From Escherichia phage tunzivis, in the sequence record MN850604.1: 50,596 bases of DNA; one strand, written 5' to 3'. Position 1 is the first letter of the stretch. The number at the start of each line of letters is the position of its first letter. The notes under the pieces were generated by a model. The model was not told the DNA's origin and made no database searches. It saw nothing but the letters and a program-made list of their open reading frames with translations. The translations under genes and the position numbers were made by a program. Of the stretch, positions 2,665-50,037 are shown in pieces.

Positions 2665-2683
2665 GTTTTAACAAAAAATGCTA
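2665..2683 (-). promoter_or_regulatory. conserved motif copy (reverse strand; variant TAGCATTTTTTGTTAAAAC), upstream of 2379..2603
   Basis: 18-nt spacer then TATATT (-10-like); CATCGAAACGAACC leader follows. Confidence 0.55.
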
Positions 2684-2801
2684 TTCCATACGCTTTACTG
2701 TAACCAATAACACACCATCATCATTGCATAAAACGTGTTCAGTGGTGCTAAAAGCTCGCATATCTGAATAAAGTAGCGTAAGTAAAGCATGAATAAAATC
2801 A

Positions 2802-3197
2802 TCATGTGATATTGAATTTACGGCGCAGTGCTTCAAGATCTTGTCTATTAGCTTTTGCCTGGAACAATTCATCATCGCCCATCTCCCCTATTCTAGCTAT
2901 ATCCCTGATCCAGTCGTTGCGCATACCATCCAGGCTATACAATTCGAATCCGAAAGGCCGCTTTGACGATCCTTTGGACCAGTATTTTCCGCAGACTCCA
3001 TCTATATAACCAGCCGTCATCATTCTTGCGCAAAATTCCTTAGATGCAAGGCTGGCGAACATTCGCGGCGTAAGTCCGGCGGCCCGTGCGAGCCGCTCAC
3101 ATTCTCTATGCTGATAGATAAATTTGGCTATGTGCTGCCTGTTAAACCAATCGTATGACTCACACCATTTATACAGATCAAGCAAAAACATAATCAT
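2802..3197 (-). CDS. hypothetical protein
   Basis: 131-aa ORF; start ATG overlaps stop of upstream gene 3194..4774 (ATGA coupling). Confidence 0.45.
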   Translation of the reverse strand: MIMFLLDLYKWCESYDWFNRQHIAKFIYQHRECERLARAAGLTPRMFASLASKEFCARMMTAGYIDGVCGKYWSKGSSKRPFGFELYSLDGMRNDWIRDIARIGEMGDDELFQAKANRQDLEALRRKFNIT

Positions 3198-4774
3198 CCC
3201 AGCAGTATTGGATTGACAAAAATAACACCATTAATCACACAAACATAATTTCTTTCTTCCAGCATTGGCAGTAAGTGCCCTTCTATCCTTTTCATTACGC
3301 CAGCCTGACCAACGAAAGGTTTTACCTTTCTCGCTGATTCGTACAGGGCGCGGATATTCAGAATCCCTTTATTAGCCTTGCCGTGCCTCGTGATCAATTC
3401 AATCAATTTACCCATTTCAGCATCATCACCAGCATAACCAGAAGCATTGGCGGCGCTAATGTATGTTTTGCTCAATTCCTGAAACATGATCAACGCCTCT
3501 TGCATTGTTTCCACGTCGATCTCTTTCGACTTCTGCGGGTATCCGGCAGGATTAAACCAGTTACGGATAACATGCAGGACGGAAGCAAGCCTGATCACCT
3601 GTTTATCCATTTTACCCAGCGCACCGCGTAACATTGTATGAGAATACTTTCCTCCGTCTGCAAGATGCGGTTCCATATCCTGGCGAGCAATGTTGAGCAC
3701 TCGCATAGCTGAACGGCTTATTTTCAGCGATATATTTGATTCGCTCATGATGTTATGCACCAATTGATAATATTGGGCTTTCAATTCAGAATCCACCGCC
3801 TCATAGGTAGAATCACCATTTTCATCAATGAATGAGCGACGGCCTAAGAATGATTCCTCTCGGACCAACAAAAAACGCTCACTAACACCGATGCCTCGCG
3901 ATCCAGCGTCCATGATTCCGCTTATCGTTTCATCCTGGGCTATGACGCTCATACATCCAAGCGCGCGAAAACTCATATTATTGTCAGCATTAGCACGGGC
4001 AATTGATACGTGACCATTATCCCACGCCTTAAGCACTAACTCACTGTTAGTCTTCCTTTCGCTATTTGCATAGGTCAAGCCTAACAGACTGTTAATACTT
4101 GTTGCTTCATCAGATATTACGGCAAAGTTACCTTGCTTGTTGTTGATTTTCGCCAAGCCTTCTGGAGTTGTATCTGAAACAGGAAAAGTTATATCACACA
4201 TTTTTTCCAGCTTTTCCTCCAGATCCTCTTTTTCCTGGTATAGAGATTCCATATCAGCGCCGGATCTTTCGCTTTTCATCTCCTTTGCAAGACCTGCCAG
4301 CTTTGCCTGTATTTTCTTTCTTTCCTTGCGGCGTTGCTCGTTGATCTTCTCAACTTCCGCAATCATCGGAGCAATAGCCATGCTGTTGATCGCAGATTTA
4401 CCAGTTGACGGCGGCTGGCTTGTAACGACGTAAAGCGCAGTCGGCTGATCGGTTCCGTGATAGTCAACCGTAAAGCGTCCAAGCATAGCGGCAGAAATGC
4501 AGCCGATAAAGTGCATGTAAGCCGATGATTCAGGGAATTGAACGGATCGCGCAATGCTGCGTGATAACTTGCCGACAACATCAATATCATTACCAAGAGA
4601 AATAACGGGGTAGCGATCGTGACCGCTATTCACATCCTTTACGTCGCCCCAAAAGCTGGACGACTGGCGATAGCCGTTAGCCTGAATTGATACGCGAACT
4701 GGCGAAAGGTTCTGGCTTTCAGCCATAGCGATTATTTGTTGTGGAGTTAATTTGTTCGTTTCTAATGAAAACAT
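3194..4774 (-). CDS. P-loop NTPase, putative replication-associated helicase-like protein (DUF3987-like)
   Basis: 526 aa; Walker A-like VVTSQPPSTGKSAINS; RBS AAGGAGAAG; motif-type promoter 53 bp upstream; family assignment is from memory. Confidence 0.45.
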   Translation of the reverse strand: MFSLETNKLTPQQIIAMAESQNLSPVRVSIQANGYRQSSSFWGDVKDVNSGHDRYPVISLGNDIDVVGKLSRSIARSVQFPESSAYMHFIGCISAAMLGRFTVDYHGTDQPTALYVVTSQPPSTGKSAINSMAIAPMIAEVEKINEQRRKERKKIQAKLAGLAKEMKSERSGADMESLYQEKEDLEEKLEKMCDITFPVSDTTPEGLAKINNKQGNFAVISDEATSINSLLGLTYANSERKTNSELVLKAWDNGHVSIARANADNNMSFRALGCMSVIAQDETISGIMDAGSRGIGVSERFLLVREESFLGRRSFIDENGDSTYEAVDSELKAQYYQLVHNIMSESNISLKISRSAMRVLNIARQDMEPHLADGGKYSHTMLRGALGKMDKQVIRLASVLHVIRNWFNPAGYPQKSKEIDVETMQEALIMFQELSKTYISAANASGYAGDDAEMGKLIELITRHGKANKGILNIRALYESARKVKPFVGQAGVMKRIEGHLLPMLEERNYVCVINGVIFVNPILLG

Positions 4775-4826
4775 TCGTTAGCTTCTCCTTTGTGGGCCGT
4801 AAATTTTAACGGCCCAATACTACCCC

Positions 4827-4845
4827 GTTTTGTCAAAAAGTGCTA
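4827..4845 (-). promoter_or_regulatory. conserved motif copy (variant TAGCACTTTTTGACAAAAC), upstream of 3194..4774
   Basis: 18-nt spacer then TAAAAT inside GC hairpin GGGCCGTTAAAATTTACGGCCC. Confidence 0.5.
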
Positions 4846-5064
4846 TTTGATCCGCTCTATTGCAACCAGAAGTCGATCAGGCTGGCGGTCGCTGTAGCAT
4901 TCTCCTGTAATCCCATCCTTAAACGTAAAGTAAAGCGCCTTATGATATGAAAAACCAATCAGCCAACCTACCGCCGTTTTTTTGATGGGCCTGACTATAT
5001 CGCCAGGCTTGAAAGTCTTTGTGGTAGAATGCGTTACTTTGTAACGGTTTTCACTGTTTATCAC
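4843..5064 (-). CDS. hypothetical protein
   Basis: 73-aa ORF; GTG start overlapping stop of upstream gene (GTGA). Confidence 0.35.
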   Translation of the reverse strand: MINSENRYKVTHSTTKTFKPGDIVRPIKKTAVGWLIGFSYHKALYFTFKDGITGECYSDRQPDRLLVAIERIK

Positions 5065-5447: not shown

Positions 5448-5500
5448 GATCAGATCTCCTTTGTTTGTTCGATGTGATTATGCCAGGTTTTTACACCTGG

Positions 5501-5519
5501 CTTTTAACAAAAAGTGCTA
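5501..5519 (-). promoter_or_regulatory. conserved motif copy upstream of 5061..5447
   Basis: reverse complement of TAGCACTTTTTGTTAAAAg; hairpin GCCAGGTG..ACCTGGC; CATAAT 18 nt downstream. Confidence 0.55.
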
Positions 5520-6233
5520 TTTTGAGTTTGACTCAAAGACGGCGCGAGCAAATCCGCGCGGAGTGAGGGAGCGGATCATCTTTGTGCGCGATGACTTGCC
5601 GCCAGTTTTGGCCCAGCCTGGATTATCTTTGTCTTCCTCTTTCGGCAGGATTAAAGCGCGCGGAGGAATAACAAAGCCGTTGCCAGTCCAGAGGCACGTT
5701 TTCTTAAAATAGCGATCACGCGCCGGAATAATATCAGGGAAGTCGGGATGTTTATCATCTTCCGGCAGATAGCCAGCGTAATCGCACGGATGGAACGTAT
5801 AATCAGGCTTACGCCATAACGTTGACAACTTGCCAACCGGATTTTCGATCATGTAAGGAACACCGAAATAATCAGCTATATCAGCCGCGATTCTGCAAGT
5901 GTCGGCGGCCTCATCCTGGAACGATGGATTCTCAAGGCGTTTTTTGGCCCAATGGCGAGATCCGCTATTTGCAAGGTCGGTGCAAGGAGGGAACGCCATA
6001 ATAAAATCAGGATTGCCCCACTCATTATTGATTGCCTTAACATAAAAAGCATCATCAATCCAGACGTTAACGTATTCGATATTCTCATGCTGTATGCGCA
6101 CTGACTGGTAATCACCGTGATCGCCGCCGTCAGCATTAAAGCAAATGCACTTATAGCCATTATCAGCCCAATCTTTAACGGCTTTACCAGATCCATCAAA
6201 TAGGGAGAATATAAAACCTTTATACATCGTCAT
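5517..6233 (-). CDS. compact DNA (cytosine-5)-methyltransferase
   Basis: ORF 5517..6296; start placed at MTMYKG with GAGG RBS; C5-MTase motifs I (FSLFDGSG), IV (FPPCTDL) and VI (ENPVG) in canonical order; unusually short, no long target-recognition region. Confidence 0.6.
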   Translation of the reverse strand: MTMYKGFIFSLFDGSGKAVKDWADNGYKCICFNADGGDHGDYQSVRIQHENIEYVNVWIDDAFYVKAINNEWGNPDFIMAFPPCTDLANSGSRHWAKKRLENPSFQDEAADTCRIAADIADYFGVPYMIENPVGKLSTLWRKPDYTFHPCDYAGYLPEDDKHPDFPDIIPARDRYFKKTCLWTGNGFVIPPRALILPKEEDKDNPGWAKTGGKSSRTKMIRSLTPRGFARAVFESNSK

Positions 6234-6237
6234 TACC

Positions 6238-6462: not shown

Positions 6463-6586
6463 CGCATAATCCCCTTAATAACAGCCAAGATAATAGCCAT
6501 GCCAGCAGCAGTAACCAAAAAACCAACCGCGCCAATAATCGAATAAAAAAAGAAATCAATAGCCTTATCTATCACTTTCCACCTCA
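6459..6586 (-). CDS. small hydrophobic protein (not in ORF track, <60 aa)
   Basis: 42 codons read manually (MRWKVIDKAIDFFFYSIIGAVGFLVTAAGMAIILAVIKGIMR); stop overlaps start of 6238..6462 (ATGA). Confidence 0.3.
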
Positions 6587-7363: not shown

Positions 7364-7417
7364 CTTTAAATCCTCGTTTGTTGTCGATGCGCTTACTATA
7401 CCAATCAGCAGCGCATC

Positions 7418-7437
7418 GTTTTTAACAAAAAGTGCTA
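7418..7437 (-). promoter_or_regulatory. conserved motif copy upstream of 7166..7363
   Basis: motif then hairpin GATGCGCT..AGCGCATC containing TATAGT at 17-nt spacing. Confidence 0.55.
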
Positions 7438-7438
7438 T

Positions 7439-8664: not shown

Positions 8665-8723
8665 TTACTATCTCCTGAGCGGTTCGTTTCGATGTGTGTA
8701 ATGTACCCGATCAGGCGGCCTGA

Positions 8724-8742
8724 GTTTTAACAAAAAGTGCTA
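8724..8742 (-). promoter_or_regulatory. conserved motif copy upstream of 8392..8664
   Basis: exact 19-mer; 18-nt spacer; TACATT; CATCGAAACGAACC leader. Confidence 0.55.
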
Positions 8743-8749
8743 TTTGACG

Positions 8750-9300
8750 GTTATCGCCAGGATTGCGATCGAAATAATCAAAAGTAATCATTCGTAATCA
8801 AATCACGTCAAAATGATGATTGCCTTTGCAAATTTGATGAGAAAAGCAATCACGTTTAATCATTGGTTGCAGGGGAGATAGTGAAACCTTCCCCTCTTGC
8901 CTCACTTTTCCGCTTGGCTGTCAGCGGTTGTTGTCTTTTGTTCACCCCTGTTACCGATTTCAGGCGGCGTGTTTCCGCGCGGTTTTCCGGTGTATCGAAA
9001 ACGGAAAAAACAAAAAAAATCCTTTATAATACATTGAAAATAAAGATTATTTATTTATATATATCTATAATGTTTTCTTTTTGTTCTCACTGTTACAGTG
9101 CTTTTTGTTGGGTATGGTGTGTTTGTGTGTGGGTATATATGGATAGTTGCGCGCGCGGCGGATTGCATATGTATATATACTTTTTCCGGCGGATTGCGTT
9201 AACAGCGTGAACAGAAAAATAACAGCCCTGAAATCAATAACTTGCGCATGATTTTGTAGTTTTTCGATATTGGTAACGTTTTGAATACAACAAAAACATT
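8750..9300. repeat. AT-rich divergent control region with short direct repeats (TAATCA-type), TA/TG-rich tracts and a motif-like AGTGCTTTTTGTT
   Basis: TAATCA/AATCAC repeats 8775..8870; GGTTTTCCGGTGTATCGAAAAC 8981..9002; TTATTTATTTATATATATCTATAAT 9047..9071; GTGTGTTTGTGTGTGGGTATATATGG 9118..9143. Confidence 0.5.
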
Positions 9301-9326
9301 GACACGCACAAAATAGCTTTTATAAT
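9299..9326 (+). promoter_or_regulatory. consensus sigma70 promoter (TTGACA-16 nt-TATAAT), candidate early promoter
   Basis: TTGACA at 9299..9304, TATAAT at 9321..9326; 32 bp upstream of first rightward gene. Confidence 0.65.
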
Positions 9327-9357
9327 GCGCCAACAGTCAACAACTGGAGGAAAGGAA

Positions 9358-9822
9358 ATGGAACAGAAGACCACTAAGGACTATTGCGATTGGCTTCGCG
9401 AGCTTGGTCGCCGCCTGGCTAGTGGCGATATTGAAGAGTATAAAATGTCACTAATTGACCTGGCCGGAATGTTAAGCGGTGACGACTGCTACAAGATCAC
9501 GCGCAGTTCATCCTACAGCCGGACCATTATCAACCGCGTTCCAGAAGTAAGGGCCGCAGGTCGGGTAAGCATCAAGGTAGAGGAAACGGAAGATGATAAA
9601 TTTTACGTTTTCCGCATGGTCCGCGAATCGAAAAGGAAAATCATCACACCCGAAGAATTGCCAGCCATCAAGGCAAGGGCGATCAAAAAGTTTGCCGATC
9701 GCATACTGGCAGCAATCCCGAATATCGTGGACCTGGAAGGGGATAAACTGGCTGGGGCTTGCGAGGGTGTAAGCCGCTACCAGGATATGATCCGCGAAAT
9801 CATCAAAGAGGAAGAGCAATGA
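9358..9822 (+). CDS. hypothetical early protein (first gene after consensus sigma70 promoter)
   Basis: ORF 9325..9822; ATG at 9358 preceded by GGAGGAAAGG; 154 aa; a possible DNA-binding role is speculation. Confidence 0.45.
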   Translation: MEQKTTKDYCDWLRELGRRLASGDIEEYKMSLIDLAGMLSGDDCYKITRSSSYSRTIINRVPEVRAAGRVSIKVEETEDDKFYVFRMVRESKRKIITPEELPAIKARAIKKFADRILAAIPNIVDLEGDKLAGACEGVSRYQDMIREIIKEEEQ

Positions 9823-10091
9823 AAAAGGCATTAATCAGCGTTTTGGCGGCAATGGCATTCCTGACCGGATGCAAAGAAGATGGCGCGCATGTTGGCAATG
9901 TGCAGATGGCTAACCCTGGCGATGACTACAGCGTAAGGGAGCTATTCACCGCTGACGGTTGCACCGTTTACCGATTCTATGACGATCGCACTGTTTACTT
10001 CACCAACTGCAAGGGCACTACTAGCTGGGAAGTGTCGAAAAGCAATGGCAAAGGCACGAAGACAGAACATATGACCGTCGAGACAAAATAG
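9819..10091 (+). CDS. lipoprotein (candidate superinfection-exclusion protein)
   Basis: ORF 9759..10091; ATG at 9819; signal peptide with lipobox LTGC; about 70 mature residues with two further Cys; stop TAG is part of the downstream motif. Confidence 0.5.
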   Translation: MKKALISVLAAMAFLTGCKEDGAHVGNVQMANPGDDYSVRELFTADGCTVYRFYDDRTVYFTNCKGTTSWEVSKSNGKGTKTEHMTVETK

Positions 10092-10107
10092 CACTTTTTG
10101 TTAAAAC
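10089..10107 (+). promoter_or_regulatory. conserved motif copy upstream of 10164..10349
   Basis: exact TAGCACTTTTTGTTAAAAC; hairpin GCCAGGTGCAAAGCCTGGC; CATAAT 10126..10131; leader CATCGAAACGAG. Confidence 0.6.
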
Positions 10108-10163
10108 GCCAGGTGCAAAGCCTGGCATAATAGCCTCATCGAAACGAGATTGAGGAAACAAAA

Positions 10164-10349
10164 ATGGCACGTCGCATCACCAAAGACCTTAAAGTACTGA
10201 ACAAAGAAAACGTAGTTAAAATCCTGGTTATCTGGGGCTACAACGAAGAAACAGCAAAGCAGAAGGTAGAGGCAGGTTATGACCTGGCTGTAAAAGCAAT
10301 GCCAAACGATGACGCCAAAGGCATTGCAAACTATGTAGCGTTCTTTTAA
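10164..10349 (+). CDS. hypothetical protein
   Basis: 61-aa ORF downstream of a motif-type promoter and CATCGAAACGA leader. Confidence 0.4.
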   Translation: MARRITKDLKVLNKENVVKILVIWGYNEETAKQKVEAGYDLAVKAMPNDDAKGIANYVAFF

Positions 10350-10364
10350 TTAGCAGGTGAATAG

Positions 10365-10550
10365 ATGAAAACGAAATTAGTCCATAAGTCAGAAATCAAG
10401 ATCGGCGATACTGTGATTCACAACGGCGAGCTTAGAACGGTTGGCAAGGAGTCAATAAGCCACGATGAATTTATGGGGATCTTGTTGTTCGGTGACTCTT
10501 ATCGTCTTGGTTACAAGATGGTTGAGCTTGTGGAAGATGTCAAATTCTAA
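10365..10550 (+). CDS. hypothetical protein
   Basis: 61-aa ORF; RBS AGGTGA. Confidence 0.4.
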   Translation: MKTKLVHKSEIKIGDTVIHNGELRTVGKESISHDEFMGILLFGDSYRLGYKMVELVEDVKF

Positions 10551-10551
10551 A

Positions 10552-10570
10552 TAGCACTTTTTGTTAAAAC
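10552..10570 (+). promoter_or_regulatory. conserved motif copy upstream of 10649..11542
   Basis: exact 19-mer; CATAAT 10589..10594 (18-nt spacer). Confidence 0.55.
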
Positions 10571-10648
10571 TCGAAAACGATAACCAGGCATAATAAATCA
10601 CATATGGCGGCACGGCGTCGCCCACAAAACCAATCAGGAGAAAGCACC

Positions 10649-11618: not shown

Positions 11619-11771
11619 ATGGCTACCTGGATTTTACTGATTCTTATGATTGATGGCGGCGTTGACCATATCGAAATGAATAGCCAGCAATCTTGCATTG
11701 AGGCACGAGAGCAGATCAAGAACAACAACGGGTTTTATGCGTACACTCACACGCTATGTATTAAGAAATAG
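11619..11771 (+). CDS. small hydrophobic protein, paralog of 12777..12938 (<60 aa, not in track)
   Basis: Manual read MATWILLILMIDGG...CIEAREQIKNNNGFYAYTHTLCIKK; RBS GAGGTGAGAG; stop TAG is the first triplet of the motif at 11769. Confidence 0.4.
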   Translation: MATWILLILMIDGGVDHIEMNSQQSCIEAREQIKNNNGFYAYTHTLCIKK

Positions 11772-11787
11772 CACTTTTTGTTAAAAC
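11769..11787 (+). promoter_or_regulatory. conserved motif copy upstream of 11841..12062
   Basis: exact 19-mer; TATAAT 11805..11810 embedded in GGCCA..TGGCC hairpin. Confidence 0.55.
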
Positions 11788-11840
11788 TCAAATGTGGGGC
11801 CAAGTATAATGGCCTCACTTTCAACGAAGGAGATAAAACG

Positions 11841-12780: not shown

Positions 12781-12938
12781 CTTGGTTGCTTTTAATCTTT
12801 GTCACAAGTTACAACTCCGCAGCTATTGAGTCGCAGGAGTTCCACGGCGAATCAAGATGCCAGGAAGCGCGAAAGCAAGTTATTCTCCACATGTCAGATA
12901 GTGGGAAGGATGTAACAGCGTTATGCGTTCGTAAATAG
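12777..12938 (+). CDS. small hydrophobic protein, paralog of 11619..11771 (<60 aa, not in track)
   Basis: Manual read MTWLLLIFVTSYNSAAIESQEFHGESRCQEARKQVILHMSDSGKDVTALCVRK; ATGA overlap with phosphatase stop; stop TAG is the first triplet of the motif at 12936. Confidence 0.4.
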   Translation: MTWLLLIFVTSYNSAAIESQEFHGESRCQEARKQVILHMSDSGKDVTALCVRK

Positions 12939-12955
12939 CACTTTTTGCAAAAAAC
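12936..12955 (+). promoter_or_regulatory. conserved motif copy (variant TAGCACTTTTTGCAAAAAAC) upstream of 13011..13274
   Basis: 18-nt spacer then TATAGT 12974..12979 inside GGGCTT..AAGCCC hairpin. Confidence 0.5.
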
Positions 12956-13010
12956 AGATCATTGGGCTTGCTGTATAGTAAGCCCATCAACAACAAACGA
13001 GGATTAAATC

Positions 13011-13667: not shown

Positions 13668-14258
13668 ATGAAACGAGACATTATCATTCTTAATGGGCCG
13701 CCAGGTTGCGGGAAGGACACTATTGCAGCTTACCTAACGGGCCATCGTTACCCAGCGGTTAAGGCGTCATTCAAACAGCCGATGTTCGATATTGCGTTTT
13801 CCATGCTTGGCCCGACTCGATATGATGAGTTTATTGACCTGTACAACGACCGAGAGCAAAAAGAAAAGCCTCAAGTTATCTTAGGCGGCAAGTCACCTCG
13901 ACAATTCATGATCTGGATTAGCGAGGATGTAATGAAGCCAGTCTTTGGGGATCACTATTTCGGGCGTCGCATGGTTGAAGAGATTCACGAGATGTACCGA
14001 GATTTAGCGGTTGTGATCAGTGATGGGGGATTCCCCGAAGAAGTCAAGCCGCTTGTTAAGGCAGGGCATGAGGTGCATATTTGCCGATTGCATCGCGACG
14101 GCTTCACGTTTGCTGGCGATTCGAGAGACTACATTGACCTGAGCGGTTATCACTATCGAATCCATCACTATGACTTCCACTTGCAGGACGGAAAGCCGGA
14201 ACTGGCTGTAAACGAGATCGTCAATGCTGTCAAATGGAAGCACACACAGATTAAATAG
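13668..14258 (+). CDS. P-loop kinase (dNMP kinase / polynucleotide kinase-like)
   Basis: 196 aa; Walker A LNGPPGCGKDT at N-terminus, as in phage nucleotide kinases. Confidence 0.55.
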   Translation: MKRDIIILNGPPGCGKDTIAAYLTGHRYPAVKASFKQPMFDIAFSMLGPTRYDEFIDLYNDREQKEKPQVILGGKSPRQFMIWISEDVMKPVFGDHYFGRRMVEEIHEMYRDLAVVISDGGFPEEVKPLVKAGHEVHICRLHRDGFTFAGDSRDYIDLSGYHYRIHHYDFHLQDGKPELAVNEIVNAVKWKHTQIK

Positions 14259-14273
14259 CACGAATTGCTAAAC
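14256..14273 (+). promoter_or_regulatory. conserved motif copy (variant TAGCACGAATTGCTAAAC) upstream of 14329..14730
   Basis: TATAAT at 14293..14298, 37 bp from TAGCAC; GC hairpin between. Confidence 0.5.
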
Positions 14274-14328
14274 GCGGGGCGCAATGCCTCGCTATAATGC
14301 AAACACCAATCAACGAGAGGAAACAATC

Positions 14329-15279: not shown

Positions 15280-15570
15280 ATGGCAAACAAAACTTACCGC
15301 AAACTACTTGTTAACGCTTTTGAAAACATCGCGCAGTGTAACAAGTGGAACGACTCTAAACACTCGCCAATCACAATGAAGCGCGCCGGATTCAAAAATG
15401 CTCGTTCATGGGCGCGAGCTTTCGCAGCTTGCTATATGCCGGATGGCGGACTAGGGGTGATGAACGATTTTTTGATCAACATGATAGAGGAAGCGGCGCG
15501 AGAGGATCGACCGCTGACACAGCGAGATTTTGACGGCTTCGCGCGCGATGAGCTTTACTATCTGAGCTAA
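15280..15570 (+). CDS. hypothetical protein
   Basis: 96-aa ORF; RBS AAGGGGA. Confidence 0.45.
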   Translation: MANKTYRKLLVNAFENIAQCNKWNDSKHSPITMKRAGFKNARSWARAFAACYMPDGGLGVMNDFLINMIEEAAREDRPLTQRDFDGFARDELYYLS

Positions 15571-15589
15571 TAGCACTTTTTGTTAAAAC
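15571..15589 (+). promoter_or_regulatory. conserved motif copy upstream of 15646..15858
   Basis: exact 19-mer; hairpin AAGGGCA..TGCCCTT; TAAAGT at +37. Confidence 0.5.
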
Positions 15590-15645
15590 TTCCGCAAGGG
15601 CATTTGGTAAAGTGCCCTTATTGAAGCGAAACAGAGGAAAGCGCA

Positions 15646-18223: not shown

Positions 18224-19791
18224 TGATCATATGGGAAGATTTGACGGCGGCGCAAAAGCGAGCCATTAAAGAAATCAGTGAGCATTCATTCGAAAAGATG
18301 ATCAGAATCTGGTTTCAGTTATTGCAGGGGCAAAAATTCCAGAGCAACTGGCATTTTAGCTTATTGTGCAGTGAGGTAGAGAAGATCATCAATGGAGAGT
18401 CGCAGAATGTGATTTTCAACATTACGCCAGGTAGCGGTAAGACTGAGATTTTCTCGATCCACATGTCACCCTACGCGTCATTGAAAAGTCGGAAGGTGAG
18501 AAACCTTAACCTTTCGTTTAGTGATGGACTTGTCCAGCAAAACAGCAACAGGATAAAGGAGATTATCGGTTCTCCTGAGTGGCAAGAGCTATGGCCAGGA
18601 AAACTGGCAAAGGCGAGCGCAAAAGATCTCATAGTTACGGATGGCGGCAAGGTTAAATTGCAAGTTAACTCACGTTCTATTGGCGGACAGGTAACAGGTT
18701 TGCGTGGCGGCTATATGGATGATGGTTTTACTGGTATGCTGGTTCTGGACGATCCAGACAAGCCTGATGATATGCTTTCTAAGGTCAAGCGTGAGGCGAT
18801 CCACATGAGGTTAAAAAACACAGTGCGTTCTCGTCGAATGAAAGACACCACGCCAATTGTTATGGTGCAACAGCGACTACACGTTAATGATTCCACCTGG
18901 TTCATGCTTAATGGCGGGATGGGCGGTATTGAGTTTAAAGTTGTGAGCATTCCTGCGCTGGTTACGAAAGAATACCGCGAAACGCTTCCTGATTGGTTGA
19001 AGCCTGAATTTGATCGTGATGTGTTGTCAAGTAAGCCAGTGATGATAGATGGAGTTGCTCATTATTCATTTTGGCCTGCAAAGGAAAGCGCGGAGGAATT
19101 GCTTGCATTGCGCAATGCAGATCCTTACACGTTCGCCAGCCAATACCAACAACAACCCATCGCGCTTGGCGGCAACGTGTTTAAAACAGAGTGGTTCCAG
19201 TATTACGGCAGCGGCGAAAAATGCGCACTTCCTAAACCGGATCGCTTTGAATACACATTTATTACTGGAGATACAGCACAGAAGGCCGGAGAGCTTAACG
19301 ACTATTCAGTTTTTTGTTATTGGGGGATGTATAAAAATCGCGTTTACTTCATTGATGGCATTCGCGGCAAGTGGGAAGCGCCAGATCTTGAATTAAATTT
19401 TATTGCCTTCGTTAATCAGTGCTGGAAGCGCAATAAGGAGTGTGGCAGCTTGCGACGTATTCACATTGAGGATAAGGCCAGCGGCACGGGTTTGATTCAG
19501 GGGGCCAAAAAGAAGATCCCGATTGATATAAATCCCGTTCAGCGAAGCAATGACAAGGTAACGCGAGCAATGGACGCCGCGCCAGTAATGAGGGCAGGAC
19601 GTGTGGCACTGCCAGAAAGTCATCCCATGTTACCTGAGATACTGGCAGAGGTTGCAGCGTTCACTTTTGACGATTCTCATCCCCATGATGATATTGTCGA
19701 TAATATAGTTGATGCTGTTAACGTCGAAATGAACTTGGCAGATGATCCGGTAGCAAGGATGAAAAAGCTGGCTGGTCTACGCAATAAATAG
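18223..19791 (+). CDS. terminase large subunit
   Basis: 522 aa; P-loop-like TPGSGKTE in N-terminal ATPase half, acidic residues in C-terminal nuclease half; position TerS-TerL-portal. Confidence 0.8.
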   Translation: MIIWEDLTAAQKRAIKEISEHSFEKMIRIWFQLLQGQKFQSNWHFSLLCSEVEKIINGESQNVIFNITPGSGKTEIFSIHMSPYASLKSRKVRNLNLSFSDGLVQQNSNRIKEIIGSPEWQELWPGKLAKASAKDLIVTDGGKVKLQVNSRSIGGQVTGLRGGYMDDGFTGMLVLDDPDKPDDMLSKVKREAIHMRLKNTVRSRRMKDTTPIVMVQQRLHVNDSTWFMLNGGMGGIEFKVVSIPALVTKEYRETLPDWLKPEFDRDVLSSKPVMIDGVAHYSFWPAKESAEELLALRNADPYTFASQYQQQPIALGGNVFKTEWFQYYGSGEKCALPKPDRFEYTFITGDTAQKAGELNDYSVFCYWGMYKNRVYFIDGIRGKWEAPDLELNFIAFVNQCWKRNKECGSLRRIHIEDKASGTGLIQGAKKKIPIDINPVQRSNDKVTRAMDAAPVMRAGRVALPESHPMLPEILAEVAAFTFDDSHPHDDIVDNIVDAVNVEMNLADDPVARMKKLAGLRNK

Positions 19792-19808
19792 CACTAATTG
19801 CTAAAAAG
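19789..19808 (+). promoter_or_regulatory. conserved motif copy (variant TAGCACTAATTGCTAAAAAG) with adjacent TATAAT, between terminase and portal
   Basis: variant motif followed 4 nt later by TATAAT (19812..19817) and then a terminator hairpin; atypical spacing. Confidence 0.4.
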
Positions 19809-24393: not shown

Positions 24394-24411
24394 CATAAAA
24401 ACATCTTGCAC

Positions 24412-24429
24412 GTTTAACAAAAAGTGCTA
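24412..24429 (-). promoter_or_regulatory. inverted conserved motif copy in front of major capsid gene
   Basis: GTTTAACAAAAAGTGCTA on + strand, followed by hairpin/T-run and RBS GGAGG; no class-F -10 on either strand. Confidence 0.45.
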
Positions 24430-24436
24430 TCATCTA

Positions 24437-28124: not shown

Positions 28125-28163
28125 ATTCCTGTAAAATCAATCTATCAAATAAATTAATTCCAC

Positions 28164-28181
28164 TTTTAACAAAAAGTGCTA
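28164..28181 (-). promoter_or_regulatory. inverted conserved motif copy abutting RBS of tail chaperone G
   Basis: TTTTAACAAAAAGTGCTA then TAAGGAGATCTTAAGATG; on the opposite strand a TAGATT lies at the canonical +37 distance. Confidence 0.45.
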
Positions 28182-28196
28182 TAAGGAGATCTTAAG

Positions 28197-38885: not shown

Positions 38886-38937
38886 CTTTATATCTCCTTA
38901 GTTGTTGTTTTCAACTATACACGATCTTGGGCATCGC

Positions 38938-38955
38938 GTTTAGCAAAAAGTGCTA
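38938..38955 (-). promoter_or_regulatory. conserved motif copy (variant TAGCACTTTTTGCTAAAC) upstream of lipoprotein operon 38885->37721
   Basis: 18-nt spacer then TATAGT; RBS AAGGAGAT. Confidence 0.5.
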
Positions 38956-39325
38956 TTTGTTATTTTTTGTTTTCCGGTGTTATCGAATTTAAGACGGCGT
39001 AAATTTAGCGCAAAATTTAGACAACATAAGATCAATAAACAATCAATAAAATAGATATATACATATAAAATCAATAGTTTATTTATTTATGTATGTATAT
39101 TTGTTTTTTCTTGTTATCTGCGTTTCTTGTGGTTTTGGTTGTTTGTGGTGATTTTTCTTTCTGAGTATCTGTATGTGCCATCATTCATGTGTATGTATAT
39201 AATCCGGCGTATCTGAGAGAACATGGTAACAAGAAAAATAACACACATTAATCATTAACTTATGAGTCAAATCTGTTTTCTTGCCATCTGAGAACGTTTA
39301 GAAAACAGAAAAAACAAAACAGCTA
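38956..39325. repeat. second AT-rich divergent control region, partly homologous to 8750..9300
   Basis: GTTTTCCGGTGTTATCGAA 38969..38987 matches 8982..8999 with one inserted T; ATCAATA repeats; TTTATTTATTTATGTATGTATAT; GT-rich TGTGGTTTTGGTTGTTTGTGGTG. Confidence 0.5.
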
Positions 39326-39353
39326 TTGACTAAATCAACCAAATGGCTACAAT
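39326..39353 (+). promoter_or_regulatory. near-consensus sigma70 promoter (TTGACT-16 nt-TACAAT), candidate early promoter for recombination operon
   Basis: TTGACT 39326..39331, TACAAT 39348..39353; 30 bp upstream of exonuclease gene. Confidence 0.6.
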
Positions 39354-39383
39354 GCACGCATAAAGCAACAAGGAGCATTAAAG

Positions 39384-44878: not shown

Positions 44879-44896
44879 TTGTAAAATCCTCCTAAA

Positions 44897-44913
44897 TAGC
44901 ACTTTTTGCTAAT
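44897..44913 (+). promoter_or_regulatory. near-palindromic conserved motif copy abutting RBS of tail fibre gene
   Basis: TAGCACTTTTTGCTAAT; read on the gene strand gives ATTAGCAAAAAGTGCTATTTAGGAGG...ATG. Confidence 0.45.
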
Positions 44914-44943
44914 GACAATGCAGATAATAGCATTTTCAAGTGC

Positions 44944-45969: not shown

Positions 45970-46446
45970 TTAGCTATTTGTGCTGTTATCACCTTTGTAG
46001 AATCGTCCGCCTGGTTCGTAGTCTGAATTTTTGACTACGCGCAACATCTCGTATTTGTCGCAACGGGTAGTAAGAGGCTTACCGTTAGAATCAAACCGCA
46101 GATCTGGACGACAAAATGATGCGCGGTATCCTTTGCATCCATTATATTTGTAGTCGTTATGCACCTTTTGTGCTCCAGCGGCTGAAATCATACCACGCTT
46201 TCGCCATTGGTTAACGACTTGCTGAGATACGCGTAGACGTCGAGCCATAGCAGGAACACCGCCATAATACTCGATCAGAATATCCAGGCGAGATTTCAGG
46301 CTTGCTTTTACCTCATCTCGCAGGATAAGAAATCCGGTTCGGTGTTTTCGTGGCTTTTTGTCTTTACCTCGTCGCGTTCCGTTGTTACCGTTAATAGTGC
46401 GCTTGTCGATCTCACCCGTAGAAACTGCAATTCGTGCATCTTTCAT
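45970..46446 (-). CDS. HTH DNA-binding protein (candidate transcription regulator)
   Basis: 158 aa; helix-turn-helix-like GGVPAMARRLRVSQQVVNQWRKRG; RBS AGGTGA abuts an inverted copy of the conserved motif. Confidence 0.5.
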   Translation of the reverse strand: MKDARIAVSTGEIDKRTINGNNGTRRGKDKKPRKHRTGFLILRDEVKASLKSRLDILIEYYGGVPAMARRLRVSQQVVNQWRKRGMISAAGAQKVHNDYKYNGCKGYRASFCRPDLRFDSNGKPLTTRCDKYEMLRVVKNSDYEPGGRFYKGDNSTNS

Positions 46447-46458
46447 CTAGTCACCTCA

Positions 46459-46477
46459 TAGCATTTTTTGTTAAAAC
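46459..46477 (+). promoter_or_regulatory. conserved motif copy (TAGCATTTTTTGTTAAAAC) in divergent region between HTH gene and helicase
   Basis: forward for helicase (TATTAT at +37); on the other strand it directly abuts the RBS of the HTH gene. Confidence 0.55.
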
Positions 46478-46533
46478 AGTTTATTGTAATGAGTCTATTA
46501 TATACTCCAAATGGCATTTTTTAAAGGTTTAAG

Positions 46534-48531: not shown

Positions 48532-48950
48532 TGGCTATAACTGATAAAGGAGATTATCTTGAGTTTTACGAAAGAGATCCAACCGACACGAGAAAGGAAG
48601 TTAATCACCAGATAGATAGCTTTCAGTGGTTGACTTATGCTCATCCTTATTTGCTAGCGTGGCATACGGTAAACGAGAATGAGAAGTCGAAAGTAACGGC
48701 GATGATTGATCAGCAGTCCGGATTGGTTAAGGGGGTAAGCGATTTCATCATCCTGATTGGTTCAAACGGAAAATACCCCTTTGCAGCGATTGAGATCAAA
48801 CGAGTTAATAAATCAGGCAAGGGGAAAGCATCACCAGTCAGCGATGAACAAAAGGCTTTTTTGCGTCGCGTTCGCAGCTTAGGAGGATTCGCTGCGGTCG
48901 CCTACGGATTTAATCAGTTTAAGTTAGCTATTGAATACATGCTTAAATAG
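48531..48950 (+). CDS. VRR-NUC-type nuclease (putative)
   Basis: 139 aa; PD-(D/E)xK-like core VSDFIILIGSNGKYPFAAIEIKR...SDEQK; ATGA overlap with helicase. Confidence 0.45.
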   Translation: MAITDKGDYLEFYERDPTDTRKEVNHQIDSFQWLTYAHPYLLAWHTVNENEKSKVTAMIDQQSGLVKGVSDFIILIGSNGKYPFAAIEIKRVNKSGKGKASPVSDEQKAFLRRVRSLGGFAAVAYGFNQFKLAIEYMLK

Positions 48951-48966
48951 CACTTTTTGTTAAAAC
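48948..48966 (+). promoter_or_regulatory. conserved motif copy upstream of dam
   Basis: exact 19-mer; hairpin TGGCGCgatggattGCGCCA; CATAAT 48985..48990. Confidence 0.55.
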
Positions 48967-49024
48967 TGGCGCGATGGATTGCGCCATAATTCAATAACAC
49001 GAGATGGCTTTTAATAGCGGAGAA

Positions 49025-49756
49025 ATGAAAATGGCTAAAGATATTTTAGATAAAGACACCCATGACGCATTTGTTAGCTTTGAGCAGTTGGAGAGAGAAA
49101 CGTTTATAGGAAATGCTCTTGCAACTGGAGGCTATTACCAGGCAGTAAAGCCAAATCAATATTATAAGGTAAGCGGCAACCGATACGCTGGAAGCACTAC
49201 GCCGGACGTTGTGCGCGATATGTGGAGCACACCTCAAGAGATCGTTGAGTGGATGGAATCAGAATTTGGCGAATACGATCTCGACGCGGCAGCAAGCCAG
49301 GAAAACGCAGTTTGCGAGAAGTTCTATAGCAAGGAAACAAACTGCTTAAAGCGTTGGTGGGGTAGCAACAAGCACGTATGGCTTAACCCGCCGTACAGCA
49401 ACCCAACTCCATTTATCAAGAAAGCAATTGAGCAAATGGAGCACAACAACCAAATTGATGTTTTGCTGCCTGCCGACAATTCCACGGCCTGGTTTTATGA
49501 GGCGCAGAAAAACGCGGCTGAAATCATCTGGATCACTGGAGAAGTTTACGAAGAGGGGGGAGTGGAATATTCCCGCACCGGAAGAATCGCCTTTGTGTCT
49601 GGATTGACTGGCGAGCCTGTACAGGGCAACAATAAGGGGAGCGTGATTTTTGTCATGCGTAAACTTAAAGAAGGCGAAGAGCAGAAAACGCGATACGTTA
49701 AGATCAGCGATATTTGCCCTTCTGTAACCGAACGCCGCGCGCGCAAACGGAGCTAA
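49025..49756 (+). CDS. dam: DNA N6-adenine methyltransferase (phage Dam-type)
   Basis: ORF 49004..49756; start placed at ATG 49025 after GGAG; catalytic NPPY motif (WLNPPYSN). Confidence 0.7.
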   Translation: MKMAKDILDKDTHDAFVSFEQLERETFIGNALATGGYYQAVKPNQYYKVSGNRYAGSTTPDVVRDMWSTPQEIVEWMESEFGEYDLDAAASQENAVCEKFYSKETNCLKRWWGSNKHVWLNPPYSNPTPFIKKAIEQMEHNNQIDVLLPADNSTAWFYEAQKNAAEIIWITGEVYEEGGVEYSRTGRIAFVSGLTGEPVQGNNKGSVIFVMRKLKEGEEQKTRYVKISDICPSVTERRARKRS

Positions 49757-49760
49757 CACG

Positions 49761-50018
49761 ATGAAAAAAGAGAGAAGCGTTTATTTAAATGAAACTGGCG
49801 AGTGGTTGTTATTTCGCGCTATGGTGTGCGATGCACTTGATAAAAACCCTAACGTGAAAAAGATGATTGATTGCGATCCGTGGGAATTTTCAAGCGCATT
49901 AGATATGAGCTTTGAGGATACAAGAAAACTACCTCTTGAAAAATGGCACGAACAAATAAGAAATGACATGCAAGAGTTTGTCGATTCGTGGAATTTTCAG
50001 AACGGAATGATCCACTAA
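49761..50018 (+). CDS. hypothetical protein
   Basis: 85-aa ORF; stop adjacent to motif at 50019. Confidence 0.45.
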   Translation: MKKERSVYLNETGEWLLFRAMVCDALDKNPNVKKMIDCDPWEFSSALDMSFEDTRKLPLEKWHEQIRNDMQEFVDSWNFQNGMIH

Positions 50019-50037
50019 TAGCACTTTTTGTTAAAAC
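50019..50037 (+). promoter_or_regulatory. conserved motif copy upstream of 50088..50273
   Basis: exact 19-mer; hairpin GCCCGGCATTTTGTCGGGC; CATAAT 50056..50061; leader CATCGAAACGAACG. Confidence 0.6.

Follow-up and report, generated by a model that had tools for sequence, protein, structure and literature searches.

A repeated marbox-like element marks putative promoters without a −35 box in a T1-like Escherichia phage

The 50,596-nucleotide sequence of Escherichia phage tunzivis analysed here (MN850604.1; the window) comes from a Warwickvirus-like, T1-like phage of the Drexlerviridae and carries a 19-bp repeat of the pattern (A)TAGCAC-N3-TTG-N-TAAAA. Searching the window with TAGCACTTTTTGTTAAAAC at up to 3 mismatches returned 16 matches against 0.07 expected from shuffles, and the looser pattern TAGCA[CT]N3TTG gave 19 copies, starting at 10089, 10552, 11769, 12936, 14256, 15571, 19789, 44897, 46459, 48948 and 50019 on the plus strand and at 2683, 4845, 5519, 7437, 8742, 24429, 28181 and 38955 on the minus strand. 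A preliminary description of this DNA had reported at least 19 intergenic copies; we recovered 19, with its coordinates right to within 1 nt, and the ORF table places all 19 between genes. Its remark that the first triplet of the motif is often the stop codon TAG of the upstream gene holds for 9 of the 19 according to the ORF table and sequences, and TAA adjoins several other copies. The repeat itself was already known, having been published for TLS, T1 and Rtp, and its function has been posed as a question (PMC11447400, 2024). What is new is the match of its core to the marbox in sequence, orientation and spacing. The element is real and appears to mark about 16 compact putative promoters (Table 1).

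Table 1. Repeat copies, putative modules and canonical promoters in the window
Feature	Position	Strand	Details
Putative promoter module	2634..2684	-	ATAGCATTTTTTGTTAAAAC, 18-nt spacer, −10 TATATT (2641-2646), predicted +1 2634
Putative promoter module, DUF3987 ATPase gene	4796..4846	-	ATAGCACTTTTTGACAAAAC, −10 TAAAAT (4803-4808) within hairpin loop
Putative promoter module	5470..5520	-	box, spacer hairpin, TGgCATAAT (5477-5482)
Putative promoter module	7388..7438	-	box, TGgTATAGT (7395-7400), −10 bracketed by hairpin
Putative promoter module, first leftward one of divergent region 1	8693..8743	-	perfect box, −10 TACATT (8700-8705)
Canonical sigma70 promoter, rightward from divergent region 1	9299..9326	+	TTGACA-16-TATAAT
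Putative promoter module	10088..10138	+	perfect box, spacer hairpin, TGgCATAAT (10126-10131), +1 A 10138
Putative promoter module	10551..10601	+	perfect box, −10 CATAAT (10589-10594)
Putative promoter module	11768..11817	+	perfect box, −10 TATAAT (11805-11810, offset 36), hairpin brackets −10
Putative promoter module	12935..12986	+	ATAGCACTTTTTGCAAAAAA, −10 TATAGT (12974-12979, offset 38), hairpin brackets −10
Putative promoter module, 'GAA' variant	14255..14305	+	ATAGCACGAATTGCTAAACG, spacer hairpin, −10 TATAAT (14293-14298)
Putative promoter module	15570..15620	+	perfect box, TGgTAAAGT (15608-15613), hairpin brackets −10
Orphan box	19788..19807	+	ATAGCACTAATTGCTAAAAA, past large terminase stop codon, then terminator; no −10 at module spacing
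Reversed box upstream of major capsid gene	24411..24430	-	no −10
Reversed module between major tail and tape-measure-chaperone genes	28132..28182	-	box, TGaTAGATT (28139-28144); antisense into bidirectional terminator
Putative promoter module, leftward, divergent region 2	38907..38956	-	ATAGCACTTTTTGCTAAACG, −10 TATAGT (38914-38919, offset 36)
Canonical sigma70 promoter upstream of RecE-like exonuclease gene	39326..39353	+	TTGACT-16-TACAAT
Orphan box	44896..44915	+	ATAGCACTTTTTGCTAATGA, reversed vs flanking minus-strand genes, beside terminator, no −10
Putative promoter module, helicase gene	46458..46508	+	ATAGCATTTTTTGTTAAAAC, −10 TATTAT (46496-46501)
Putative divergent promoter, Cro-like regulator gene	TTGGAG 46505-46510, TACAAT 46483-46488	-	predicted from sequence; overlapped by 46458..46508 module
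Putative promoter module upstream of Dam methylase gene	48947..48997	+	perfect box, spacer hairpin, −10 CATAAT (48985-48990)
Putative promoter module	50018..50068	+	perfect box, spacer hairpin, −10 CATAAT (50056-50061), +1 A, leader AUCGAAACGAAC

Sixteen copies are followed by a sigma70-type −10 hexamer 36-38 nt past the T of TAGCAC, 13 of them at exactly 37. Fifteen are co-oriented copies, with [T/C]AnnnT at offset 37 (12 copies), 36 (2) or 38 (1); the sixteenth, 28181(-), has TAGATT at offset 37 and is antisense to late genes. No −10 at the module spacing was found in copies 19789, 24429(-) and 44897. The reversed box at the major capsid position recurs in T1 (15085-) and Vc1 (5728-), and T1 also has a copy at the position of the reversed tail-gene module (18849-). 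Across a wider sample of 440 distinct copies from about 38 T1-like genomes, [T/C]AnnnT stands at exactly 37 in 82% and at any other offset in 7% or fewer, which bears out the fixed motif-to-hexamer distance proposed earlier. The hexamer profile is sigma70-like (in order T.77, A 1.0, T.83, A.65, R, T 1.0), A at −11 and T at −7 being the two positions by which copies were chosen for it. Outside the hexamer the profile shows G at −14 (.85), C at −1 (.74) and A at +1 (.88), with TG ahead of the −10 (TGn) in 45% of copies, and the spacer is unconstrained (information content below 0.4 bits). Downstream of the hexamer come C−1/A+1, a conserved A/C-rich leader (AUCGAAACGA) and a Shine-Dalgarno sequence, and the ATG lies at a distance of 70-83 nt from the motif.

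The search for a −35 upstream of the −10 yielded at best TTAAAA (4/6, 19-bp spacer) and TTGTTA (22 bp), in agreement with the earlier claim that a TTGACA-like −35 is lacking, while the two textbook sigma70 promoters that had been described are both present. The box is centred near −40.5, in forward orientation and overlapping the −35, which is the class II position; the suggested activator-box geometry is upheld, as the −10 is of sigma70 type and lies at a fixed distance from the box, and a usable −35 is missing. The modules are very probably promoters, and the box is likely to be a protein-binding activator site in the class II position. The analogy with T4 MotA drawn at the time fails, since the box is centred at about −40.5 and not −30 and no MotA or AsiA homologue was found in the phage.

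The core GCACTTTTTGTTAAA fits the published E. coli marbox consensus GCAHWWWWTGYYAAA (PMC6900184; another version reads gcannwwntgnnaaa, PMC12052159) at 15 of 15 positions in forward orientation. There are 15 perfect marbox matches in the window against 0.25 in shuffles and 11 in T1 against 0.05, and all specified marbox positions are high-information positions of the phage logo, whose position 13 is Y (C.53 / T.45). The conserved site is asymmetric, with same-strand A-tracts on both sides and with C6 and T10 not related by a dyad, and thus fits a monomer site and not a dimer operator. Class II marboxes are forward, overlap the −35 and are centred at −36 to −55, and the RamA site at micF lies at about −41 (CACT-7X-AAA). 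E. coli micF, the one host promoter against which the spacing was verified, has ACAGCACTGAATGTCAAAAC followed by 18 nt and TAGAAT where the phage has ATAGCACTTTTTGTTAAAAC followed by 18 nt and the hexamer, so that the box-to-(−10) spacing is the same in both (AAAAC + 18 nt + hexamer). Rob has been crystallised on the micF box and MarA on GATGCCACGTTTTGCTAAATC, and the phage variant GCACGTTTTGCTAAA is one base off the mar box.

The box also occurs in early-promoter cassettes of the T4-like Slopekvirus and Pseudotevenvirus, at 5-10 places per genome, where it lies 30-31 nt from the −10 (+10/11), farther upstream by one helical turn; a single Slopekvirus copy shows the 18-nt spacing of the T1 type. 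Such a shift leaves the box on the same face of the helix, which is what binding by a protein would predict. The PeSL early promoters of RB49 have their −10 and leader in common with the phage modules, and lacZ fusions have shown PeSLs to have promoter activity (PMC2839356). Modules were also found in Vc1, annotated as infecting Vibrio cholerae, and in 20 records labelled Campylobacter phage. The box copies in other families could have travelled as neutral passengers when cassettes moved horizontally. Instead of being 'phage-specific', as had been proposed, the element is a perfect host marbox with micF-like spacing that is shared with unrelated T4-like phages.

The match in sequence, orientation and −10 distance to the site of MarA/SoxS/Rob, host activators of stress responses and drug resistance, suggests that the phage may borrow a host activator instead of having its own. 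We give a probability of about 0.5 to the explanation that these are activator-dependent promoters without a proper −35, read by host MarA/SoxS/Rob/RamA. Each co-oriented copy would then supply the upstream half of a compact, roughly 62-bp cassette, in which the previous stop codon is followed by A-TAGCAC-N3-TTG-Y-T-AAAA-C (about −50 to −31), 18 bp of unconstrained spacer in which a hairpin usually forms, the sigma70 −10 ([T/C]AtaaT, G at −14 in 85%), C−1/A+1, leader, Shine-Dalgarno and ATG. A monomeric two-HTH host activator of the MarA/SoxS/Rob family (RamA in Klebsiella) would bind with HTH 1 to GCAC and HTH 2 to the TG-YY-AAA half, touch sigma70 region 4 and/or the alpha-CTD and recruit host RNA polymerase, compensating for the lack of a −35 in the manner of E. 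coli micF. Six-frame ORFs of the window and of T1 contained no MarA/SoxS/Rob homologue (best E 0.07), and Pfam gave no AraC-type HTH in 20 early proteins. Unstressed cells contain little MarA or SoxS, and most Rob is sequestered unless inducers are present (PMC2787020); dependence on these activators would leave a virulent phage conditionally crippled. Should Vibrio and Campylobacter be the true hosts and have no MarA-type activators, reading by a host protein would be unlikely in these phages.

A phage-encoded factor would free the phage from such scarce or sequestered activators, and retention of the motif in Vc1, a phage with a Vibrio annotation, also points this way. An early phage protein on the box would replace the −35, and the box promoters would fire later than the two canonical ones, as a delayed class. 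There are two candidates that look DNA-binding and could read the box, a Cro/YdaS-like HTH protein (45970..46446; conserved in the window, T1, Vc1 and Drexlerviridae) and a winged-helix-like protein of 131 aa (2802..3197; conserved in the window, T1 and Vc1). In the divergent region between the regulator and helicase genes the box overlaps the putative promoter of the Cro-like regulator, a layout typical of autoregulation. In the 53% of copies with C at position 13, TAGCA-N5-TGCTA makes the box a partial dyad at its outer bases. However, the asymmetric conserved positions suit a monomeric marbox better, neither of the two genes is placed downstream of a canonical promoter, and among the contigs sampled homologues of both candidates occurred only in those of about 45-72 kb (T1-like-sized genomes) and were not seen in the box-bearing Slopekvirus and Pseudotevenvirus. 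Two products had been put forward earlier as the factor: that of 45970..46446 is kept in Drexlerviridae and was not seen in the sampled box-bearing Straboviridae, and that of 9358..9822, a DUF7174 protein, has no homologue in T1 or Vc1, both of which bear the motif. We consider a phage activator unlikely.

Less probable still is that sigma70 RNA polymerase alone uses the modules through the −10 with G at −14, the weak TTAAAA and the T- and A-tracts as a proximal UP-like element, the conservation of the box then being due to its stop codon, to homology for recombination and to the spread of cassettes. The frequent G at −14 and TG and the 4/6 match at a 19-bp spacer might give some factor-independent activity, the box is A/T-rich and an UP-like element was proposed by the TLS authors, in RB49 the related cassettes consist of a plain sigma70 promoter preceded by AT-rich DNA, and cassette indels end at the box. 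UP elements of the Estrem/Gourse consensus reportedly lie at −59 to −38 and do not need invariant GCAC or TG at fixed positions, and the phage box spans −50 to −31. A 15/15 marbox match with micF-identical orientation and spacing is also improbable by chance, and the shift in T4-like phages stays on the same helical face.

The TLS repeat has been suggested to act as a stoperator, in analogy to those of mycobacteriophage L5, with a repressor of phage or host origin on the box shutting off or blocking early transcription units. The numerous, intergenic and orientation-biased copies, the box (46458-46477) covering the start of the putative regulator promoter and the reversed copies in late operons (24411, 28163) would suit such a site. 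Stoperators, as Brown et al. 1997 reportedly described them, act inside transcribed DNA at no fixed distance from a promoter; the fixed 37-nt distance to a −10 without a −35 is instead a signature of activation, and the phage is virulent without a lysogeny module, making a negative site very improbable.

The spacer had been described as usually a GC-rich inverted repeat. Hairpins are indeed enriched (MFE of −10 kcal/mol or lower in 69% of copies vs 7% of shuffles), but only about one third lie wholly inside the spacer, and in one third to one half the arms flank the −10 hexamer, the dyad being fixed at −12.5. Their arms covary. Two identical boxes (modules 10088 and 10551) exactly delimit a cassette of 441 bp (10108-10548) that is absent from phage JLBYU01, which has a single box copy at that site. 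A terminator, attenuator, processing or cassette-shuffling element with an incidental hexamer, for which these features and the PeSL precedent speak, is equally improbable as a substitute for promoter function, with which such roles are compatible: no U-tracts follow the hairpins, 18% of modules lack a stable hairpin and keep box and −10, A at −11, T at −7 and C−1/A+1 are promoter features, and the element has no Rfam match. By analogy with T4-type PeSLs, the hairpin probably serves attenuation or processing of transcripts reading through from upstream cassettes, and the repeated boxes may also be passive substrates for cassette gain and loss via homologous recombination. If a host activator of the MarA/SoxS/Rob family does read the box, the module promoters could be immediate-early.

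The 19-bp element reported in the preliminary description is a genuine repeat. With TAGCACTTTTTGTTAAAAC as the pattern, 16 copies were found in the window at three or fewer mismatches, against 0.07 expected from dinucleotide shuffles, and the looser form TAGCA[CT]N3TTG gave 19, including the variants already noticed at 14256, 19789 and 44897. All 19 copies are intergenic, as had been claimed, and an A precedes each of them. The TAG of the box is often the stop codon of the upstream ORF (9 of 19 copies), which also agrees with the earlier reading, and TAA adjoins several others. A [T/C]AnnnT hexamer follows in all 15 copies that are co-oriented with the downstream gene; its offset, measured from the T of TAGCAC, is 37 nt in 12 copies, 36 nt in two and 38 nt in one, bearing out the near-constant distance to a -10-like sequence. 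In these copies the start codon lies 70-83 nt from the motif start, with a single exception at 97 nt. We call the box together with its 18-nt spacer, -10 hexamer, predicted +1 and leader a module. The two textbook sigma70 promoters were found as described before and are tabulated with the remaining box copies and two conserved proteins.

Coordinates of box copies outside the co-oriented set, canonical promoters and putative DNA-binding proteins in the window
Feature	Position	Strand or direction	Remarks
Box copy with -10	28181	(-)	Same layout as the 15 co-oriented modules, but antisense to late genes
Box copy without -10	19789	(+)	Adjoins a terminator, from sequence
Box copy without -10	24429	(-)	Adjoins a terminator, from sequence
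Box copy without -10	44897	(+)	Adjoins a terminator, from sequence
Canonical sigma70 promoter	9299..9326	rightward	TTGACA-16-TATAAT
Canonical sigma70 promoter	39326..39353	rightward	TTGACT-16-TACAAT
Cro/YdaS-like HTH protein, putative DNA-binding, conserved	45970..46446		'Transcriptional regulator' in T1; divergent from helicase gene
131-aa protein, putative DNA-binding, conserved	2802..3197	(-)	Winged-helix-like in AlphaFold model; T1 CPTT1_070

The element itself is known. A re-annotation of phage TLS in 2024 described a 21-nt direct repeat, aaATAGCACnnnTTGnTAAAA, of which about 18 copies lie between genes, oriented with transcription and some 76 nt before start codons, and saw it also in T1, Rtp and Rogue1 (PMC11447400). 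The authors offered stoperators, enhancer sites or UP-like elements as functions, counted the function among the unanswered questions on T1-like phages, and detected no more than three sigma70-like promoters in TLS (PMC11447400). The window element has the aaATAGCACnnnTTGnTAAAA consensus, is intergenic and co-oriented and stands at the matching distance from the ATG; it is the same element as the TLS/T1/Rtp/Rogue1 direct repeat, which is its closest known relative, and falls into TTT, GAA and AAA subgroups. New here relative to that study are the constant distance from box to -10, a conserved +1 with its leader, the division of the hairpins into classes and the marbox identity. In the literature searched, the motif occurs in no paper besides PMC11447400, and we found neither a link between marboxes and T1-like phages nor a start-site map of a T1-like phage; the assignment of the element to a known kind of promoter in virulent phages thus appears new within that literature.

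The layout extends to relatives. The window is 96-98% identical to the Warwickvirus phages tonn, tinuso, Tuinin and JLBYU01 (Drexlerviridae, subfamily Tempevirinae). T1 (subfamily Tunavirinae) carries about 19 copies, again 18 nt from TAnnnT hexamers, and Vibrio phage Vc1 (genus Jhansiroadvirus) about 10, and a pattern scan of IMG/VR gave at least 120 stretches, those among the matches listed coming from about 35 T1-like contigs. Pooling the window, its relatives and the IMG/VR matches listed gave at least 440 distinct copies; the [T/C]AnnnT hexamer stands at an offset of exactly 37 in 82% of 440 pooled copies, every other offset accounting for 7% or less. A logo was built from the 363 copies with the hexamer at offset 37, in which the A and final T of the -10 are 1.0 as selection criteria. 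It reads A at -50 (.96), TAGCAC, a W-rich triplet (TTT or GAA) and TTG, then a pyrimidine at position 13, C in.53 and T in.45 of copies, followed by T, AAA, A (.81) and C (.69). The 16 spacer positions from -30 to -15 are essentially free of constraint. Further downstream come G at -14 (.85; TG at -15/-14 in.45), a -10 profile of T/C, A, T (.83), A (.65), R and T, C at -1 (.74), A at the predicted +1 (.88) and an A/C-rich leader, AUCGAAACGA. By its sequence such a profile belongs to a sigma70 promoter that has a partial extended -10 but lacks a -35. Hexamers resembling a -35 are limited to TTAAAA (4/6), with a 19-bp spacer, and TTGTTA, with one of 22 bp; the box, at about -49 to -31, replaces the -35, so that this part of the preliminary description stands. 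A -35 hidden inside the motif was rejected, as TTGTTA/TTGCTA lies 22 bp from the -10 and no -10-like hexamer occurs 17 bp past it.

For the genome architecture, the closest known system is that of the PeSLs (promoter-early stem-loops) of the T4-type phages RB49 and phi1, repeated intergenic cassettes of promoter and stem-loop that flank small ORFan genes. PeSLs are strong early promoters by lacZ fusions (PMC2839356). An RB49 PeSL cassette has the same -10 and leader, acacccATCGAAACGAGATTGAGGAAA, after a consensus TTGACA -35. The window modules share with PeSLs a stem-loop, the -10 and leader cATCGAAACGAGATTGAGGAAA and the gain or loss of cassettes via recombination, present here as a cassette indel at repeats. 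In a PeSL the stem-loop, a true terminator, precedes an AT-rich region and a consensus TTGACA -35, whereas in the phage module the -35 is absent, the box takes its place and the promoter itself contains the stem-loop, which sits within the spacer or encloses the -10. Because the logo has a sigma70 profile and its -10 and leader recur in an RB49 PeSL, a class with proven strong early activity, the modules are very likely promoters. The leader AUCGAAACGA(A/G) begins at the predicted +1 and spans to about +15 (e.g. 10138-10152, 50068-50082); it is common to T1-like phages and to early cassettes of RB49 (Krischvirus), Slopekvirus and Pseudotevenvirus, had no match in Rfam, and might serve to enhance translation or to stabilize the 5' end.

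The preliminary description had called the element phage-specific, and this does not hold. E. coli MarA, SoxS and Rob recognize the site 5'-GCAHWWWWTGYYAAA-3' (PMC6900184), alternatively written gcannwwntgnnaaa (PMC12052159). The commonest phage core, GCACTTTTTGTTAAA, agrees with this marbox consensus at 15 of 15 positions and the GAA variant, GCACGAATTGCTAAA, at 14 of 15. Perfect matches number 15 in the window against 0.25 in shuffles and 11 in T1 against 0.05, and the looser form of the marbox gave 18 in the window against 1.9. All of the positions that the marbox specifies are high-information positions in the phage logo, and those that it leaves free or degenerate are the variable ones. 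Against the classical marbox 20-mer, which we take to be AYnGCACnnWnnRYYAAAYn, the phage box agrees at 19 of 20 positions. The box is asymmetric, with A-tracts on the same strand at both sides and with C6 and T10 not paired to each other by a dyad, and fits a monomeric protein with two HTH motifs and not a dimer operator; an operator of the form TAGCA-N5-TGCTA was rejected on the asymmetry of the conservation and the Y, not C, at position 13.

Marboxes of class I are reversed and lie upstream of the -35, whereas those of class II are forward, lie over the -35 and have their centre at -36 to -55 (PMC12052159, PMC6900184). All 16 modules with a -10 carry the box in the forward orientation, GCAC distal and AAA proximal to the -10. 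Given a hexamer at -12 to -7, the 15-mer lies at -47 to -33, which is a class II position, and the sigma70-type -10 profile and the C-1/A+1 of the start predicted from sequence are those expected of a class II promoter, whose transcripts begin 6-8 nt past a sigma70-type -10. RamA binds the micF promoter at about -41 on CACT-7X-AAA (PMC8811837). In E. coli K-12 the micF promoter consists of ACAGCACTGAATGTCAAAAC, 18 nt, TAGAAT and 7 nt to the annotated micF 5' end, and the phage modules of ATAGCACTTTTTGTTAAAAC, 18 nt and a hexamer; orientation, spacing (a 20-nt gap from 15-mer to hexamer) and the AAAAC that ends the 20-mer are the same in both, micF being the one host promoter against which the exact spacing match was checked. 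At fumC, inaA and zwf, the sequence left either the marbox or the -10 hexamer ambiguous. The DNA in the Rob crystal structure is the micF box and that in the MarA structure is the mar box, GATGCCACGTTTTGCTAAATC (PMC8279559), and the latter differs from the phage variant GCACGTTTTGCTAAA by one base. Class II marbox promoters, with a forward box over a poor -35, a centre near -41 and a sigma70-type -10, are the closest known kind for the mechanism, and the box is probably an activator site at the class II position, judging from its sequence and placement. There are also differences: host marboxes are degenerate (micF 14/15, mar 13/15) and single per operon, whereas the phage has 15 perfect copies in 50 kb, and unlike host marboxes the phage boxes, whose binding by an activator is predicted, front the early and replication genes of a virulent phage.

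Other activator systems were weighed against the marbox. Class II dimeric activators such as CRP, centred at -41.5, and lambda cI at PRM, centred at -42, overlap the -35 and contact sigma region 4; the phage box is centred similarly over the -35, but the CRP and cI sites are dyad-symmetric whereas its conservation is asymmetric. The preliminary description had likened the modules to the MotA-dependent middle promoters of T4; these MotA/AsiA promoters also combine a sigma70 -10 without a -35 with a box read by an activator, and TTTGCTAAA does resemble the MotA box, (t/a)(t/a)(t/a)TGCTT(t/c)A. The latter, however, has its centre at -30, 11-13 bp from the -10, whereas the phage box is centred at about -40.5 with its TGCTAAA end 20 bp from the -10, and phmmer with MotA and AsiA query sequences found neither in the six-frame ORFs of the window and T1 (best E 0.48); the analogy was dropped on both counts. 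The two timing classes of the preliminary description, host-only early and motif-dependent second, gained no support here either. A sigma54 promoter has TGGCAC-N5-TTGCW with an invariant GG and GC 10 bp apart, and was rejected because the phage TAGCAC-N3-TTGYT has AG for GG at a spacing 2 bp shorter. An UP element is A/T-only, extends from -59 to -38, is read by alpha-CTD and has no invariant G/C, and was rejected for a box at -50 to -31 with invariant G, C and G positions. Stoperators of the mycobacteriophage L5 type are repressor sites within temperate-phage transcription units at no fixed promoter distance, and do not match a -10 distance fixed at 37 nt in a phage whose relatives have no annotated lysogeny functions.

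The box is also present in T4-like phages. One copy in Slopekvirus phT4A forms a complete T1-type module of box, 18 nt, TATAGT, hairpin and ATCGAAAC leader. In Slopekvirus (150040, KP27) and Pseudotevenvirus (Margaery, GAP161) the cassettes consist of ATAGCACTTTTTGYTAAAAA, a terminator hairpin with TTGCA, TTTTGT-TATATT and the same leader; the box lies 30-31 nt and not 20 nt from the -10, which is one helical turn farther upstream. Hundreds of records of Klebsiella, Enterobacter, Cronobacter and Citrobacter phages contain such T4-like cassettes, with BLAST detecting them at 5-10 sites in each genome. One of them is labelled 'putative middle promoter; discovered using MEME' in the KP27 record (NC_020080.1 55495-55523); the annotated feature, with TTGCATA at 16 nt from TATATT, resembles a MotA box poorly, and it does not include the conserved ATAGCAC box, found immediately upstream.

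Which protein reads the box is a separate matter. A MarA-like protein of the phage itself was rejected: hmmsearch and phmmer with MarA, SoxS and Rob-N gave no homologue in the six-frame ORFs of the window and T1 (best E 0.07), Pfam gave no AraC-type HTH in 20 early proteins, and the 131-aa protein does not model as a MarA fold. The product of 9358..9822 (DUF7174), which the preliminary description had named, next to that of 45970..46446, as an example of a candidate factor, has no homologue in T1 or Vc1, both of which carry the motif, and is therefore not a family-wide reader. Two phage candidates are conserved. The Cro-like regulator has homologues in 849 records, and those sampled all measure 44-55 kb. 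Homologues of the 131-aa protein, which is labelled 'YdbL' or hypothetical in records, came solely from T1-like contigs of up to 72 kb; its AlphaFold model (pLDDT 82) has a helical domain and a beta-hairpin wing, with weak matches only in the PDB (E of 0.3 or more), mostly of MarR/GntR type. The Cro-like regulator gene and the helicase gene are separated by a divergent region of 87 bp (46447-46533), in which promoters face each other and overlap: the box module points rightward and a putative TTGGAG-16-TACAAT promoter points leftward, with its predicted start at about 46476 inside the box. A protein on this box would thereby turn on the helicase gene while blocking that of the regulator.

As the box-bearing phage families share a host order and no detectable phage regulator, we favour, without considering it proven, a reader supplied by the host, and on the sequence comparison give MarA, SoxS, Rob or RamA an even chance of being that protein. 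Against this, unstressed cells contain little MarA or SoxS, and most Rob is sequestered unless inducers are present (PMC2787020). The modules could also have some factor-independent activity from the G at -14 and the weak TTAAAA, and the exact spacing match with a host promoter is that of micF alone. Furthermore the same modules occur in Vc1 (NC_054898.2), whose annotated host is Vibrio cholerae, and in 20 T1-like records labelled as Campylobacter phages, such as MG065667.1 (Campylobacter phage A127). The proteins of Vc1 are 60-79% identical to those of this coliphage, so its host label needs checking, and both the Campylobacter and the Vibrio labels may be unreliable, which bears on the host-factor hypothesis. 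We put at roughly 40% the probability that virulent enterobacterial phages of two unrelated families, the T1-like Drexlerviridae and the T4-like Slopekvirus and Pseudotevenvirus, have wired many of their early genes to MarA/SoxS/Rob/RamA via consensus marboxes.

The GC-rich inverted repeat that had been placed in the spacer holds in part. Hairpins are indeed enriched: the 40 nt from -31 to +8 fold at -10 kcal/mol or lower in 69% of modules against 7% of shuffles. Their position is less uniform than had been described, as about 30% of modules have the hairpin within the spacer, ending at -13/-12, in about a third to a half it brackets the -10 hexamer, and 18% have no stable hairpin. In the bracketing group the dyad is fixed at -12.5 (i + j = -25), and at least 6 of 7 pairs form in this register in 121 of 363 modules, compared with 10% after exchanging arms among modules. 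Each position shows more than one type of pair, so that selection acts on the structure and not on the sequence. No U-tract follows the module hairpins, and Rfam gave zero matches anywhere in the window, by which known RNA families were rejected. By analogy with PeSLs we suggest that the hairpins attenuate or process read-through from the upstream cassette. The window has a 441-bp cassette with two 61-codon ORFs (10108-10548) that JLBYU01 lacks; the breakpoints fall exactly in two identical boxes, where JLBYU01 has a single box (2087-2108). By sequence, this is as expected for recombination between repeats, a PeSL-like shuffling.

Reversed boxes occur at two equivalent positions of the late region in different subfamilies: 24411-24430(-) and 28132-28182(-) in the window, 15085(-) and 18849(-) in T1, and 5728(-) in Vc1. 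The first position is directly upstream of the major capsid gene and the second between the major tail and tape-measure-chaperone genes. The second copy retains a -10, which reads TAGATT in the window and TAAGAT in T1; transcription from it would run toward the major tail gene on the antisense strand, and an antisense control of late genes by such boxes is possible. The two large AT-rich divergent non-coding regions, 8743-9360 and 38956-39384, have GC contents of 38% and 30% where the genome has 45%. They are collinear, one being a diverged copy of the other, with 72-77% identity in several blocks totalling about 350 bp. Each combines a leftward box module and a rightward canonical sigma70 promoter with repeated TGTATATATA and CCGGCGGAT-like motifs, and they may be origin or regulatory regions.

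The marbox identity turns the function of the T1-like repeat, explicitly listed as open in 2024 (PMC11447400), into a directly testable matter. If the host reader is correct, lytic phages co-opt host regulators of stress and antibiotic resistance for early transcription, and bile, salicylate, oxidants or antibiotics would tune phage early expression. Permissiveness would be altered in mar, ram or sox up-mutants that overexpress the activators, including multidrug-resistant clinical strains, with a bearing on phage therapy where T1-like Klebsiella and E. coli phages meet mar- or ram-derepressed strains. Dozens of high-affinity boxes on replicating phage DNA would also titrate the activators from host efflux and porin control, and the near-zero promoter finds of annotation pipelines in T1-like genomes would be accounted for. 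Even with a phage protein as the reader, the family would have a usable promoter model of box, 18 nt, -10, +1 A and leader.
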